The notes beneath the pieces were generated by a model. That model was given only the letters and a program-made list of their open reading frames with translations, made no database searches and was not told the origin of the DNA. From Dehalococcoidia bacterium (lineage in GTDB: Bacteria > Chloroflexota > Dehalococcoidia > Dehalococcoidales > JAUVZE01): a stretch of 32,144 nt of DNA. The position numbers were made by a program, and so were the translations under genes. Shown here piece by piece: positions 4,778 through 20,229 of the stretch (positions within the stretch are counted from its first letter, which is position 1; the number at the start of each line of letters is the position of its first letter). Location of the stretch: positions 1-32,144 of the forward strand of contig SOJS01000012.1 of the NCBI GenBank assembly GCA_004376435.1. Reading direction: 5' to 3'.

Positions 4778-5920
4778 GTGAAAGGAAGAAGATTTTTAAC
4801 AGCAGTTGTTGGTATCAGCCTGATGCTGATGCTGGCAGTAGCGCTACCGCTACTGAGCGCCTGTCCAGCCCCAACAACGACTGAAGAGGTTGAACAGCTA
4901 CAAGCAGATTTAGCTGCAGCAAATGCGACGATAGCCGACCTTGAGGCTCAGCTAGCCGCAGTAGGGGTAGAGCCTGAAGTACTGGAGCTGAGAATGCAAC
5001 ACTCCTGGGGTGCTGCCGAAAACCACTTCTTTGAGCAGTATGCCGATATTGTCAGGGAGATGACTGGTGGGCAGATTGACATCGCTGTCTTCTCTGACGG
5101 TGAGCTGGTGAGCTGGGATGAGCTCTCAGATGCAGTAGCGGCGGGGACGGTTGACATAGGGCATACCCACCCTGACTATTATGAGATGGTGGTCCCCGAG
5201 GGTTACCTAGAATCAGCCCCCTATCTGTGGCAAACACTAGACGAGGAAATGGCTGTTATCTATGAATTTGGTGTTGGTGACTTATATGCCGAAGCCCTTG
5301 AGGAGGTCTATGGCTACCATGTGATTGGCTTCCAGCCAGATGACTACGGCGCCCTGATGTTCACCAAGGAAATTAACAGCATAGCTGACATGGAGGGCTG
5401 TGTCATCCAGCTTCTGGATCCTTATGCTTCTATCCTGGCTGAGCTGGCCGGTTCCTCAGCAACCTATCTTGGCCCCGAGGAAATCTACACCTCGCTGGCA
5501 CTGGGCGTTCTTGACGGGGTTGAGTATGGCGGCGCCAAGGCTATGGGAGACATGGGGTTCCATGAGGTAGCCAAGTACTTCGTGCTGCCGCGCCATCAGC
5601 AATCTTGGTTCCCGTTCTACTTCATCAATGCTGATACGTGGGATAGCCTGACTGCTGACCAGCAGGCAATTCTTGAGCAGGCTGTCTACGCTAACGGCAT
5701 CTACATGAGAGCCTTCTATGCCGAGGGAGAAGCAAGCTCTCTGGCGATGATGGTGGATGCTGGCGTTACAGTGTGTTACCTGCCTGATGAGGATGTGGAG
5801 GCTATCTTCCAGAAGACTCTTGAGTGGCTAGAGGAAGACTATGCTGCCATGTCCCCGAGGTGCGCTGAGATAACCGAAAGGGTCTTTGAGGCATTAAGGG
5901 TCTTCGGGCGCATAGACTAG
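4778..5920 (+). CDS. TRAP transporter solute-binding protein (DctP family), lipoprotein with an N-terminal tether module
   Basis: GTG start with AAGGAG RBS. Signal peptide and lipobox LLSAC. Linker PAPTTTEEVEQLQADLAAANATIADLEAQLAA. The DctP-like body follows (RMQHSWGAAENHFFEQYADIVREMTGGQIDIAVFSDGEL...AVAAGTVDIG), and dctQ and dctM lie immediately downstream. Confidence 0.85.
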   Translation: MKGRRFLTAVVGISLMLMLAVALPLLSACPAPTTTEEVEQLQADLAAANATIADLEAQLAAVGVEPEVLELRMQHSWGAAENHFFEQYADIVREMTGGQIDIAVFSDGELVSWDELSDAVAAGTVDIGHTHPDYYEMVVPEGYLESAPYLWQTLDEEMAVIYEFGVGDLYAEALEEVYGYHVIGFQPDDYGALMFTKEINSIADMEGCVIQLLDPYASILAELAGSSATYLGPEEIYTSLALGVLDGVEYGGAKAMGDMGFHEVAKYFVLPRHQQSWFPFYFINADTWDSLTADQQAILEQAVYANGIYMRAFYAEGEASSLAMMVDAGVTVCYLPDEDVEAIFQKTLEWLEEDYAAMSPRCAEITERVFEALRVFGRID

Positions 5921-6067: not shown

Positions 6068-6598
6068 GTGAAAAGCTGGATAATGAAATGGCTGAGGCTT
6101 ACTCTTCGGCGCATTGATAGCTTTAGTGACATTTTTGCCAAGTCTATCTGCTGGCTAATCTTGGTTCTTATGGCCTGCACGTTCTATGACGTGATAATGA
6201 GATACTTCTTCAACTCGCCAACTATCTGGGCTTACAGTCTGGTTGGGCAGCTTTTTGGTCCCCTCTGGTTACTGACCGGTGCCTATCTTCTCACCCATGA
6301 TGAGCATGTCCGCATGGATATCTTCTACCGGCGCTTTTCTCCCAGGAAGAAGGCTATTATAGACATAATCACCTATACACTTTTCTTATTCTATATCATC
6401 CTGATACTGAAATTCGGATGGAACTATTTCTGGCTGTCCTTTATCAGAGAGGAGCACTTACGGGCAATGTGGAAACCTCTTATATGGCCATTTAAGTTGG
6501 CAATACCAGTAGGAATGGCCCTCATCCTGATAGCTGGTATCGCTAAATATATCCGTGACTTCCACCTAGCTATCACCGGGAGAGCACTAGAAGAATGA
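6068..6598 (+). CDS. TRAP transporter small permease (DctQ family)
   Basis: 176 aa with about four hydrophobic spans. It sits between dctP and dctM, and its stop overlaps the dctM start (ATGA at 6595-6598). The start is uncertain: GTG 6068 or ATG 6083. Confidence 0.8.
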   Translation: MKSWIMKWLRLTLRRIDSFSDIFAKSICWLILVLMACTFYDVIMRYFFNSPTIWAYSLVGQLFGPLWLLTGAYLLTHDEHVRMDIFYRRFSPRKKAIIDIITYTLFLFYIILILKFGWNYFWLSFIREEHLRAMWKPLIWPFKLAIPVGMALILIAGIAKYIRDFHLAITGRALEE

Positions 6599-7911
6599 GT
6601 ATTGAGTTAATTACGCTAATCTTTTTTGGTTTCATGCTGCTGCTTCTGGCGACCGGGCTGCCGATAGTCTTCGCCCTGGGGGGGCTGAGTTTAGGGCTTG
6701 CCTTTTTCCTGTGGGGACCTGAGGCTTTAGGCATGTCGCTCTACGGCGCTGTCAGTATAGTGAAATACTCCCTGCTGGTATGCGTCCCCCTCTTTGTCTT
6801 TATGGGAATGATGATGTATCATTCCGGCATAGCCGACGACCTCTATAATGCCTTCCAGTACTGGCTAGCGCCCATACCCGGCTCCCTGGCATCAGCTACA
6901 GTAGGGGTTTGCACTATCTTTGCTGCTATAGTTAGTTCTGAGGCGACTGCTACCCTGACCATGGGGAGCATTGCCCTCCCCCTGATGCGCAAGCGGGGAT
7001 ATAGCAAGTATATAGCAACAGGGTGCATCCAAGCAGGGGCAGCTCTAGGATTCCTCATTCCACCCAGCGCCATTGCCATCCTCTATGCCGTCATTGCCAA
7101 GGAATCGGTGGGCATGCTCTTCGCCGGGGGACTTTTCCCGGGACTGCTGCTGGCTACCCTGTTTATTATCTATATAACTGTGAGATGCAAAATTCAGCCG
7201 CACTTAGCTCCTCCTATCCCGAAGGAGGAGAGACCTGATATGAGGGAAAAACTGAGGTCCCTCAGGGGTTTAGTCCTCCCTATGAGCATCATCATACTGG
7301 TTATGGGGTCAATTATTGGCGGACTAACCACCCCGGTAGAAGCTTCTGCAGTAGGTGCCTTGGCCAGCATCATAGCGGTTGCCATCAAGCGCCGGCTCAG
7401 CTTACGAGTTATTCAAGACTCACTCATGGCGAGCTTGAAGCTCACCGGCATAATGATGTGGATTTTCATGGGGGCACTGACCTTCGGCAAAATCTATGAT
7501 GGCTTGGGAGCCAAGGATATAGTAGAAGCAGTCATGACTGGCCTACCGCTGGGACGTTGGGGTATACTCATAATGATACAGCTCACCTTCTTCATCCTGG
7601 GGACGTGCTTGGATGATACTGCCATCCTGTTTATCACCATGCCTATCTATATCCCTATAATCAAGGAACTGGGCTTTGACCCAGTATGGTTCGGCGTCCT
7701 TTACCTGGTCAATATGCAGATGGCTTATTTAACCCCACCCTTCGGCTATTGCCTAATGCTGATGAGGGGGGTGGTTCCACCGGATATAACTATGGGAGAT
7801 ATCTACCGTTCAGTTATACCCTTCGTCTTACTTCAGGGGGTTGGTCTGGCTATCATTATGCTATTCCCCCAGGTAGTCCTCTGGCTTCCCCACCTCATAT
7901 TTGGGAGCTAA
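6595..7911 (+). CDS. TRAP transporter large permease (DctM family)
   Basis: 438 aa and highly hydrophobic, with multiple membrane spans. It is translationally coupled to dctQ, which is the typical DctM size and arrangement. Confidence 0.88.
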   Translation: MSIELITLIFFGFMLLLLATGLPIVFALGGLSLGLAFFLWGPEALGMSLYGAVSIVKYSLLVCVPLFVFMGMMMYHSGIADDLYNAFQYWLAPIPGSLASATVGVCTIFAAIVSSEATATLTMGSIALPLMRKRGYSKYIATGCIQAGAALGFLIPPSAIAILYAVIAKESVGMLFAGGLFPGLLLATLFIIYITVRCKIQPHLAPPIPKEERPDMREKLRSLRGLVLPMSIIILVMGSIIGGLTTPVEASAVGALASIIAVAIKRRLSLRVIQDSLMASLKLTGIMMWIFMGALTFGKIYDGLGAKDIVEAVMTGLPLGRWGILIMIQLTFFILGTCLDDTAILFITMPIYIPIIKELGFDPVWFGVLYLVNMQMAYLTPPFGYCLMLMRGVVPPDITMGDIYRSVIPFVLLQGVGLAIIMLFPQVVLWLPHLIFGS

Positions 7912-10732: not shown

Positions 10733-10773
10733 TTAACATAGAATAAAAATAAAATTCAAGGAGGAAGGACGAG

Positions 10774-12519
10774 ATGAGAACCAAGAAAGGTTTACTAAGT
10801 CTACTGGTGGTAGCACTGCTGGCGCTCTCTTTGGTAACAGCCTGTCCAGCCCCAACAACGACTGAAGAGGTTGAGCAGCTGAATGCGACGATAGCCGACC
10901 TTGAGGCTCAGTTAGCCGCCGCAAATGCGACGATAGTCGACCTTGAGGCTCAGTTAGCCGCCGCAATGGGAGAGCCGGCAGAGGAAATAGCATACGGTGG
11001 CAGACTGGATGTTGGCTTTACTGCCGGAGAGGGTCTGGAAACTCTGTTATGTGACTCAAACTGGCAGTATACTGAGATGGGATGTGTTTTTTGGCCCCTA
11101 GTATACGACCAATTATGGATTATGGGGCCGGCACCGGATTACGAGGTCCTGCCTATGTTAGCCACCAGCTGGGAAACAGAGGATGGCATAACCTGGACAT
11201 TCTATCTGCGTGAAGATGCTGTCTTCCATGATGGTGTGCCAGTCACAGCCGAGGACGTGGCTTTTACCATTGAGAACTTGCCTAACGCCGACCCGGCATG
11301 GGCTTTTACCGATATAATTACTGAACCGGGAAGTGTTAAAGTTATTGACGATTACACGGTAGAGTTTACGCTGGAGCAATCGATTGGCACTAGATGGCCG
11401 GCTGCTTATTGGGCACCAATACTCCCCAAGCACATCTGGGAGCCCTATACAGACGATATGCTGTCGTTTTCCAACGATGAAGCCATTGGCTCTGGCCCGT
11501 ATAAGCTAAAGGAATTCAAGGCAGCCCAATATGTATGGTTTGAAGCCAATGAAGACTACTGGGGAGGAAGGCCATACTTAGATGAGGTGGTGTTTAGGAC
11601 CTATGGCAGTGAAGACGCCCAGTACATGGCTTTAAAGAGTGGTGAGGCCGACATGATTGGGTATCTAGGTTGTTCGGCAGTGGCTGCGGAGGACTTCATA
11701 GGGCTCGAGGACATGGAGGTTATAGTTTCTCCAGGCATCGGGCTGCAGTGGCTATCGTTTAACCTGTACAAGGATACACCGCTTCAAGACCTGGAAGTAA
11801 GGAAAGCCATTATGTATGGCATAGATAGGGATAGAGTCATAGAAATGGCATTCCTCGGCTATGCCCAGACAGCGGACAGCTTCATATATCCAGAAGTGGC
11901 AGAGCATAATCCAAATTTGCCGCAGTATGCCTACGACGTTGACCTGGCTAATGAAATCCTGGACAATGCCGGCTACCTGGATAGTGATGGCGATGGCATG
12001 AGAGATGACCTTACCTTCGAACTGTTAGCACCCTCAGATTGGACTGACGAGTTAAAGGCAGCGACACTGATTAAGGAGCAGCTTGCCGAAATAGGGATAG
12101 ATATCTCTCTGACGGTGCTGGACCTTGATACCTACTATGAGTATATCTATACGCCGGAGGAAGAGGAATACGAAATTGCTATTGCTACAGAAGAGCCCGG
12201 TCCGCATGGTGAGTGGATGTGGGAATTCTGCCGCAGCTATGAAGCTGGAGGCGAGGGGTGGAATACAGCTTACTGGGCTAACCCTGACTTTGACGAAGCC
12301 CTGGATGCCATGCTCGCCGAGGTAGACGTAGAGCAACGAACGGCATACCTGTATGAGATGCAAATGCTGATGGCTGAGGATCTGCCTTACGGTGTGCTTT
12401 ACAGGCCAGACCTGATAAACCCGGTAAGGACCGATGAGTTTGAAGGCTATGTAGAGACGATGGGGGGAATTTCGACTTGGATTAACCCCTGGACTTACTT
12501 TGAGCTGCACCTGAAATAA
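10774..12519 (+). CDS. ABC transporter substrate-binding lipoprotein, family 5 (Dpp/Opp/Nik-type)
   Basis: Signal peptide and lipobox LVTAC, then the same PAPTTTEEVEQL...NATIADLEAQLAA tether as the TRAP SBP. A large (about 520 aa) SBP_bac_5-like body follows (ATSWETEDGITWTFYLREDAVFHDGVPVTAEDV, GSGPYKLKEF). Dpp-type permeases and ATPases lie downstream. Confidence 0.85.
   Translation: MRTKKGLLSLLVVALLALSLVTACPAPTTTEEVEQLNATIADLEAQLAAANATIVDLEAQLAAAMGEPAEEIAYGGRLDVGFTAGEGLETLLCDSNWQYTEMGCVFWPLVYDQLWIMGPAPDYEVLPMLATSWETEDGITWTFYLREDAVFHDGVPVTAEDVAFTIENLPNADPAWAFTDIITEPGSVKVIDDYTVEFTLEQSIGTRWPAAYWAPILPKHIWEPYTDDMLSFSNDEAIGSGPYKLKEFKAAQYVWFEANEDYWGGRPYLDEVVFRTYGSEDAQYMALKSGEADMIGYLGCSAVAAEDFIGLEDMEVIVSPGIGLQWLSFNLYKDTPLQDLEVRKAIMYGIDRDRVIEMAFLGYAQTADSFIYPEVAEHNPNLPQYAYDVDLANEILDNAGYLDSDGDGMRDDLTFELLAPSDWTDELKAATLIKEQLAEIGIDISLTVLDLDTYYEYIYTPEEEEYEIAIATEEPGPHGEWMWEFCRSYEAGGEGWNTAYWANPDFDEALDAMLAEVDVEQRTAYLYEMQMLMAEDLPYGVLYRPDLINPVRTDEFEGYVETMGGISTWINPWTYFELHLK
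10882..10965 (+). repeat. In-frame 42-nt tandem duplication (2 copies, 1 mismatch) inside the SBP tether
   Basis: aatgcgacgatagCcgaccttgaggctcagttagccgccgca (10882-10923) is repeated at 10924-10965 with C changed to T. Each copy encodes NATI(A/V)DLEAQLAAA, 14 aa or two heptads. Confidence 0.9.
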
Positions 12520-19077: not shown

Positions 19078-20229
19078 GTGAGGATTAAAAATAGCGCACC
19101 ATTAGCTATCAAGATATGGCTGCTTGTAGCTTTACTGCTGGCTAGTCTGGTTCTTGTCGGCTGTTTTGGCGTTCCACCCCGGGGGTGGTCAGGAGGAGCA
19201 GTAGCCGAGGATACCCTGTTTCTGGGTTCTATGGATGGCGAGTTCCTCGCCCTGAAGGCAGAAAGTGGTGCTCGTCTGTGGCAGATGCCAATTGAAACCG
19301 AAACTAGCGGCGGTGGCTTTGGCTGTGCGCCAGCACCAACATCAGTCGCTATCTATGGCACCCCAGCAGTTGGGGAGGAGTTGGTCTATTTTGGTGGCTA
19401 TAATGGTAAGGTCTATGCCCTTAATACCAGTTCCGGCGCCTTGAGGTGGGTCTATCCCCGCCAGGGTAATCTGGAGCCGATTGCCGGTGGGGCAGTGGTA
19501 GCGCTAGGTAAGCTCTATATTGGCTCTTCAGATGGCAAGCTCTATGCTCTGGATGCCGCCACCGGTGATGAGATTTGGCAGTTTGAGACCGGAGACAAGG
19601 TGTGGTCAACGCCGGTTATTGACGGCAACAGATTGTTCATTGCTTCCTTTGATAAAAAGCTCTATGCTCTGGATGCCGCTACCGGTGACGAGATTTGGCA
19701 GTTTGAGACTGAAGGGGCTATTGTCTCCACCCCCGTCGTCCATAATAGCCGGGTCTATATTGGCTCCTTTGACAGGCACCTTTATGCTCTAGATGCCGCC
19801 AGTGGCAGAAAAATCTGGCAGTTCCCCAGTGATGATGAGGCTGAGGGCGGGCCGGGAAACTGGTTCTGGGCAAAGCCGATTGTCCATAATAACACCCTAT
19901 ATGCCGTCAATCTTGATGGCAGGGTCTATATCTTAAGTGCCGAAACTGGCAGTGAGGTGGCCAGCACCATTGACATTGGCAGTCCCCTTTCCTCGTGGCC
20001 GGTTTTAGCTGACAGCTCGGTTATTATCGCCTCCGAGGAGGGCACAATATACGCTCTTGATACCGCCACTAACCAAGTTAAGCCGCTGGCTAACCTGGAT
20101 GAGAAGGTCTATGCTCCCCTAGCCGCCAGCGATGGGGTGGTCTATGTTCACACCCAGGAAAACACCCTTTATGCGCTGAGTGCCCAGACAGGGGTAACGC
20201 TGTGGAGCCTGCCACTAAGCAGTAAGTGA
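19078..20229 (+). CDS. PQQ-like (BamB/YfgL-like) eight-bladed beta-propeller lipoprotein
   Basis: GTG start with GGAGAG RBS. Signal peptide and lipobox LVLVGC. Eight repeats of about 40 aa of the type (K/R)LYALDAxTGxxxWQF. It lies 25 nt after yidD and 11 nt before yidC. Confidence 0.8.
   Translation: MRIKNSAPLAIKIWLLVALLLASLVLVGCFGVPPRGWSGGAVAEDTLFLGSMDGEFLALKAESGARLWQMPIETETSGGGFGCAPAPTSVAIYGTPAVGEELVYFGGYNGKVYALNTSSGALRWVYPRQGNLEPIAGGAVVALGKLYIGSSDGKLYALDAATGDEIWQFETGDKVWSTPVIDGNRLFIASFDKKLYALDAATGDEIWQFETEGAIVSTPVVHNSRVYIGSFDRHLYALDAASGRKIWQFPSDDEAEGGPGNWFWAKPIVHNNTLYAVNLDGRVYILSAETGSEVASTIDIGSPLSSWPVLADSSVIIASEEGTIYALDTATNQVKPLANLDEKVYAPLAASDGVVYVHTQENTLYALSAQTGVTLWSLPLSSK

Follow-up and report, generated by a model that had tools for sequence, protein, structure and literature searches.

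How do two transport proteins with unrelated binding domains come to carry nearly the same DNA directly behind their lipidation sites? The question is raised by a 32,144-nucleotide stretch from a Dehalococcoidia bacterium (contig SOJS01000012.1 of assembly GCA_004376435.1, positions 1 to 32,144 of the forward strand; here called the window), in which two genes lying about 6 kb apart share a tether cassette that begins, in both, at the Ala codon preceding the lipobox Cys. One gene, dctP, encodes the substrate-binding lipoprotein of a tripartite ATP-independent periplasmic (TRAP) transporter, and the other a family-5 substrate-binding lipoprotein of the ATP-binding cassette (ABC) class; the assignments are clear, with 142.1 bits for DctP against the PF03480 profile (gathering cut-off 23.4) and 295.1 bits for the ABC protein against PF00496 (gathering cut-off 32.4). 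It seems quite probable to us that the cassette was copied as DNA between neighbouring operons of one chromosome, probably from dctP into the ABC gene, and that what it encodes is a helical spacer tether.

A preliminary description of this DNA had reported two blocks common to the genes, 4859-4899 with 10840-10880 at 40/41 nt and 4922-4959 with 10882-10919 at 37/38 nt, and both counts were reproduced exactly. The sole mismatch in each block is synonymous, A/G at 4894 (GAA/GAG) in the first and C/T at 4952 (CTA/TTA) in the second. The second block belongs to a 42-nt unit, encoding NATIADLEAQLAA(A/V), of which dctP has a single copy and the ABC gene a tandem pair (unit 1, 10882-10923; unit 2, 10924-10965), and beyond it a fainter similarity extends to about 4975 and 10977, where GAGCC encodes the 'EP' of a Gly/Pro hinge. 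When 4840-4990 was searched against the 791-kb genome with blastn-short, the E values were 6e-15 and 4e-13 and no other places matched; a motif scan of the whole assembly in six frames likewise confined the encoded peptides to dctP and the ABC gene. On either side of the tract the two genes are as different as had first been described, the signal peptides being identical at 8/24 positions and the mature domains falling into separate Pfam families (PF03480 and PF00496). Within it, the likeness reaches down to codon choice: 23 of the 27 identical aligned residues use the same codon, where 10.8 would be expected from genome codon usage, and none of 200,000 codon-usage simulations attained 23 shared codons. 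As synonymous sites and codons match along with the residues, the shared identity points to inherited DNA and not to selection at the level of the protein. The boundaries of the tract are sharp, at the lipobox codons GCCTGTCC on one end and at the hinge GAGCC on the other. Near-identical DNA, sharp boundaries, unrelated genes and a surplus of shared synonymous codons are the marks by which gene conversion or ectopic recombination is recognised, and all were found here; a recent ectopic copy of about 120 bases between the two genes is well supported by the alignments, which bears out the earlier suggestion that a short module had been copied or gene-converted between non-homologous genes.

The same description had gone further and taken the sharing to imply selection for one specific stalk, and here the evidence points elsewhere. 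Since the synonymous sites are near-identical as well, the near-identity stems from recent copying and not from constraint. One more binding lipoprotein of the genome, a third (contig C108), has a short Pro tether and lacks the cassette, the closest relatives of both genes have Pro-rich tethers, and the search that had been proposed, for the stalk peptides at other lipoproteins in this genome and beyond, returned only dctP and the ABC gene as carriers. A word search of 5.8 billion proteins of 320-1017 aa found no third carrier; metagenome contigs scanned with the back-translated patterns NATI[AV]DLEAQLAA and PTTTEEVEQL gave 0 matches, which is weak evidence of absence; and among 1.84 billion cluster representatives phmmer matched 27 to the 56-aa stalk, all of them generic multi-repeat coiled coils and none with E < 1e-10. 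A scan of genome contigs was dominated by the word DLEAQLAA, the 3 matches listed being long coiled-coil proteins (from Nitrospira, Granulosicoccaceae and Christensenellales metagenome-assembled genomes). Words like ANxTIxDLxxQL are frequent in unrelated long coiled-coil proteins, and the motif itself is generic. A separate observation from these searches is a 14-residue repeat, (A/T)AN(A/T)TI(A/S)(D/N)LQ(S/A)QL, which stands in tandem in several unrelated secreted proteins (P0212, P0213, P0216, P0218 and P0224); one carrier has a type IX secretion system sorting domain, and no specific Pfam family covers the repeat.

The history of the ABC gene can be read from its closest ortholog, P0094 (about 88-90% identical), which lies on the European Nucleotide Archive contig L019 (ERZ27251159). 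The contig is 77% identical to the window up to 10768 and 88.5% identical from 10980, and between these points L019:258-425 and window 10769-10979 have zero similarity; the start codon and the EEI codons mark clean breakpoints. What L019 encodes at the replaced site is a signal peptide of unrelated sequence and a tether of Pro-rich EEV(S/T)PPP type, LPAPPEEVSPPPEEVTPPPPPAEPPEEE. About 28 further lipoprotein ortholog clusters also have Pro-rich tethers, mostly EEVTPPP-type repeats in variable number, and the heptad helix occurs in none of them; relative to L019 and the other orthologs the ABC gene of the window is, to judge by these comparisons, in the derived state. The replaced region itself appears composite. 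Over its first 74 nt, as far as GCCTGTCC (window 10774-10847 against L018:2586-2659), the ABC gene matches the beginning of the gene for P0004 at 85% identity, although the protein P0004 is only 46% identical to the ABC protein overall, and the ABC signal peptide looks like a separately exchanged module. Because the signal peptide is P0004-like, the stalk DctP-like and the mature domain ortholog-like, the ABC N-terminus reads as a mosaic of three parts, whose joints lie at the lipobox codons on the 5' side and, on the 3' side, at the hinge, where the tract in common with dctP ends too. This mosaic anatomy is clear. The signal peptide of dctP, for its part, resembles those of the DctP orthologs P0012, P0016 and P0036 (59-66% for P0016 and P0036) and on that account is native to dctP. 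The context of the P0004 gene on L018 is a different one, with an AsnC regulator, a class-III aminotransferase, a binding protein and an M20 peptidase.

Tethers of the DctP orthologs are hypervariable after the Cys: they may be Pro/Thr/Ser-rich, short, or absent altogether, in proteins that are not lipoproteins and have signal peptides of the signal peptidase I type. In seven DctP ortholog clusters, dispersed over the tree of mature domains, the tether is a heptad helix, acidic and about 50 aa long. When a consensus of this conserved TRAP stalk was searched against 201 genomes of the same order, it found four DctP paralogs in genome G023, which is 58% complete (contig C70, loci L026, L030 and L031; contig C16, locus L032), and one in G030 (L027), together with two weak, doubtful matches. 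The stalks of the G023 and G030 genes (PAAPEE...DLEDEIAELRAPAEVY) are 60-94% identical to one another, whereas their mature domains are only 22-36% identical; identical residues share their codon at a rate of 56-90% in the stalk and 33-42% in the mature part, and even across the two genomes, G023 and G030, stalk DNA reaches 87% identity. One stalk of this type has an extra DLEGEVS heptad, and the closest partners of signal peptide and stalk often differ from gene to gene. The divergence of stalk versus mature part, together with these differing partners, argues that the N-terminal modules of these lipoproteins have been exchanged repeatedly. The window cassette has much the same architecture, from lipobox through Ala/Pro spacer, acidic start, 4-6 heptads and P-x-E-V to the domain, and resembles the PAAPEE-type stalks also in length changes by whole heptads and in module exchange between divergent genes; it differs from them in having also entered an ABC family-5 binding protein. 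Its sequence is of another type, rich in Ala, Gln, Asn and Thr where the conserved TRAP stalks are rich in Glu and Lys, and it showed no significant similarity to the PAAPEE-type module; it is collinear with the ortholog stalks save for a one-heptad gap, in what is a low-complexity alignment. A separate case, encoded at L028 (G050:C6:29558-32710), is a 303-aa lipoprotein whose lipobox is followed by a short coiled coil of NDRIAEL repeats and then two copies of an aromatic-rich domain (SAYxIWYDQYY...) with no Pfam match.

Could the shared segment be an artefact of assembly, through a chimeric join or a collapsed repeat? The ABC gene is present in a contig of a separate metagenome assembly from the Joint Genome Institute, L014, which is 99.5% identical to the window over 14.7 kb; its ABC gene has 13 mismatches, all of which fall outside the cassette, and includes the two 42-nt units, so that an independent assembly holds the same ABC copy. 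What speaks for an artefact is that L014 terminates within dctM, and the dctP copy of the cassette thus comes from a single contig of a single assembly. In a chimera, though, the flanks would switch, and a chimera is unlikely because the reading frame of each gene continues into its own domain and the copies differ by 4 substitutions (3 of them synonymous), by a 21-nt segment and by unit number. The repeats are moreover 41 and 38 nt long, lengths that the larger k-mers in common use by assemblers exceed, and we regard an artefact as very improbable. Independent convergence on one protein sequence, or selection on a shared RNA or DNA element, is if anything still harder to credit. The peptide motif ATIADLEAQLA does recur among unrelated coiled-coil proteins, as convergence would have it, but those proteins are only 36-57% identical to the stalk and are generic multi-repeat coiled coils, and the shared synonymous codons lie far above expectation. 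The reading as an RNA structure in 4859-4979 was rejected, the fold being no better than that of shuffled sequences (z = -0.01).

The direction of the copy is harder to settle than its occurrence. We lean towards dctP as the donor, since the ABC gene appears derived and helical stalks recur on TRAP binding proteins. Ectopic recombination or gene conversion would then have moved the cassette from dctP into the ABC gene, in the order lipobox Cys, extended Pro/Thr spacer PAPTTT, amphipathic helix (four heptads in DctP, five in the ABC protein) and Gly/Pro hinge G-x-EP; the 42-nt, two-heptad unit would have been doubled in register by slippage within the ABC gene, and the QADLAAA heptad that only dctP has would have been lost there after the transfer. 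Several observations tell against this history. Among DctP proteins the nearest relatives (78-81% identity) have tethers that are non-helical, either Pro-rich or short; identity between the window stalk and the conserved TRAP stalks is no more than 30-47%, and the consensus of the latter finds no match in the window's own genome (G000) at E <= 0.001; and the diverged stretch 4901-4921, with the 21-nt length difference, needs additional events under every model. That diverged 21 nt, lying between near-identical blocks of dctP, would fit patchy conversion of an older dctP stalk, and the mosaic within dctP could reflect such conversion in the reverse direction or from a third donor, unassembled or foreign, which is possible. 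Transfer from the ABC gene into dctP, or supply of both genes by a third gene that is foreign or missing from the 89%-complete assembly, is accordingly an alternative to be taken seriously, and P0004, a relative of the ABC gene whose mature part starts CP..TTEE, lends it something. We nevertheless think it unlikely: the heptad stalk is found in no ABC family-5 ortholog, helical stalks are recurrent among TRAP binding proteins, the dctP stalk is collinear with ortholog stalks from which it stands one heptad gap apart, and no third carrier turned up in the protein and cluster-representative searches or in two metagenome scans.

AlphaFold2 (AF2) models built with ortholog alignments agree for both proteins on a low-confidence Cys/PAPTT spacer, then one helix, then a short loop before the domain; the helix block has a predicted local distance difference test (pLDDT) score of 76-91 across both models, and the flanking hinges are of low confidence. 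These helices, 28 residues long in DctP and 35 in the ABC protein and continuous in both, are monomer predictions. Read at the a and d core positions, the DctP helix gives V L L A I L L V and that of the ABC protein V L I L L A I L L; the 3-4 hydrophobic spacing is perfect, and there is 0 or 1 strong hydrophobic residue off the core; both stalks thus have the run of at least 3-4 uninterrupted heptads with hydrophobic a and d positions by which a coiled coil is recognised in sequence, and the differences in length, of 7 aa and 14 aa, leave the heptad register intact. The Pro/Thr-rich spacer and heptad-patterned helix of the preliminary description are accordingly found in both model and register, and the coiled-coil prediction for which it had called gives a continuous heptad helix with a perfect predicted a/d core in both stalks. 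Its view that this is not a described domain has also held so far as Pfam goes, where no family exceeded its gathering cut-off and the best score, 19.1 bits against 21.4, came from among generic coiled-coil families only. The N-A-T sequons of the stalk were considered as glycosylation sites and set aside; the conserved TRAP stalks are without them.

Most plausibly the stalk acts as a hinged, semi-rigid spacer: a helix of about 4-5 nm that would keep a lipid-anchored binding protein off the membrane. A parallel coiled coil is plausible as well, because the residues at a are beta-branched or Leu and those at d are Leu, a combination that by the usual core-packing rules suits a parallel dimer, and a dimer is probably what would form; the net charge of the stalk is strongly acidic, at -8 to -10, which could disfavour self-association and counts against it. 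It is tempting to take this a step further and to suppose that the stalk is a parallel coiled-coil module which both oligomerises lipid-anchored binding proteins and sets their height in the envelope of an apparently wall-less bacterium, that the two adjacent operons, having stalks so nearly identical, give rise to mixed TRAP/ABC oligomers which co-localise importers for one amine/amino-acid pathway, and that signal peptide, stalk and domain are each independently exchangeable at the lipobox joint, but taken as a whole we find this improbable.

Anchoring of both proteins is predicted in the ordinary way. Both N-termini have what was required of a lipoprotein signal, namely an n-region with basic residues, an h-region with hydrophobic ones and the lipobox [LVI][ASTVI][GAS]C (VKGRRF...LPLLSAC in DctP, MRTKKG...LSLVTAC in the ABC protein), and DctP and the ABC protein are predicted lipoproteins. 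The genome encodes Lgt (PF01790, E = 1.7e-52) and the signal peptidase II LspA (PF01252, E = 1.7e-38). No penicillin-binding protein transpeptidase and no FtsW/RodA were found in the 0.79-Mb assembly G000, whose estimated completeness is 89%, and this fits a very small organism that apparently has no wall. The positions of the genes and of the segments of the two stalks are collected in Table 1.

Table 1. Coordinates, in the window, of the two binding-protein genes and of the parts of their N-terminal regions.
Feature	Position	Strand	Remarks
dctP	4778..5920	+	TRAP substrate-binding lipoprotein, 380 aa (P0001); PF03480 E = 2.8e-41; AF2 mean pLDDT 92
dctP signal peptide	4778..4864	+	ends in lipobox LLSAC, Cys codon 4862-4864; from the translation
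Shared block 1 (A-C-PAPTTTEEVEQL), dctP copy	4859..4899	+	40/41 nt identity with 10840-10880
Predicted continuous alpha-helix of DctP stalk, residues 35-62	4880..4963	+	AF2 DSSP; block pLDDT 77-91
QADLAAA heptad, dctP only	4901..4921	+	diverged half unit; 14/21 nt match to second half of the unit; heptad register kept
42-nt unit (NATIADLEAQLAAV), single copy in dctP	4922..4963	+	39/42 against ABC unit 1, 38/42 against unit 2
Hinge GVEPEV before first strand of DctP domain	4964..4981	+	residues 63-68, loop in AF2; partial GAGCC match to ABC hinge
N-terminal region replaced as a whole in close relative L019	10769..10979	+	no similarity there in the L019 alignment
ABC family-5 substrate-binding lipoprotein gene	10774..12519	+	581 aa (P0002); PF00496 E = 1e-87; AF2 mean pLDDT 91
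ABC signal-peptide module	10774..10847	+	ends in lipobox LVTAC, Cys codon 10843-10845
Shared block 1, ABC copy	10840..10880	+	40/41 nt identity with 4859-4899
Predicted continuous alpha-helix of ABC stalk, residues 30-64	10861..10965	+	AF2 DSSP; block pLDDT 76-83
Two tandem 42-nt units (NATIADLEAQLAAA, NATIVDLEAQLAAA)	10882..10965	+	41/42 identity to each other; both identical in independent contig L014

Three known systems offer points of comparison. Binding proteins of both the TRAP and the ABC class are membrane-anchored in Gram-positives (PMC5812351), and the linkers of Parageobacillus lipoproteins, with a length of 17.1 +/- 11.0 aa (range 2-71), are presumed to be flexible (PMC13068155). 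Like those of monoderm lipoproteins in general, the linker described here lies between the lipidated Cys and the folded domain, apart from the body of the protein, and is variable in length; it differs in being predicted as a single heptad helix rather than as disordered, and in that its DNA is common to two protein families. Erp/Elp lipoproteins of Borrelia burgdorferi are described as having OspE/F-like leader peptides (PMC12242104, citing Akins et al. 1999). There too lipoprotein genes have a common N-terminal export region and differing mature parts, but what Borrelia shares is the leader peptide, among the plasmid or prophage surface antigens of a pathogen, whereas in the window it is the stalk after the Cys that is shared, between chromosomal genes for nutrient binding whose signal peptides differ. 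The sharing of leaders in Borrelia is attributed to recombination among paralogous loci. Braun's lipoprotein, Lpp, a trimer, resembles the window stalk as a lipid-anchored heptad coiled coil, that of the window being predicted. Its length sets the width of the periplasm (PMC5736177, PMC8824477), and it is free-standing and joins the outer membrane to peptidoglycan (PMC5736177). The window stalk, in contrast, bears a globular binding domain, has no sequence relation to Lpp and belongs to a genome in which no peptidoglycan synthases were found. In our literature searches, binding lipoproteins with heptad-helix or coiled-coil tethers were nowhere described, nor was the transfer of such tethers between classes of transporter; flexible linkers, recombined leaders and the Lpp ruler are known, and what would be new, on the sequence evidence, is a helical tether passed between transporter classes.

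The tethers of binding lipoproteins are usually seen as featureless leashes, and here one takes the form of a defined, portable cassette, predicted to be helical, that has crossed between two classes of transporter and changes its length solely in whole heptads; L019 and the window make a natural before/after pair. If the helix sets distance or pairs receptors, it would bear on how bacteria that have no cell wall or outer membrane arrange the zone in which binding proteins meet their transporters, and on the pace at which export and anchor modules re-assort. If the stalk is a neutral spacer only, this would be a minor case of gene conversion in low-complexity sequence. In either event there is a warning for annotation, as identity at the N-termini of binding proteins need not mean related function.

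The neighbourhoods of the two genes are of the expected kind. dctP is followed at 6068-7911 by genes that we take to be dctQ and dctM, and permease and ATPase genes lie 3' of the ABC binding-protein gene, according to the annotation of the syntenic contig L014. Elsewhere in the window, at 19519-19834, three direct repeats with a spacing of 120 nt and 64-84% identity lie in the gene of a pyrroloquinoline quinone (PQQ) beta-propeller lipoprotein, where they are blade repeats.

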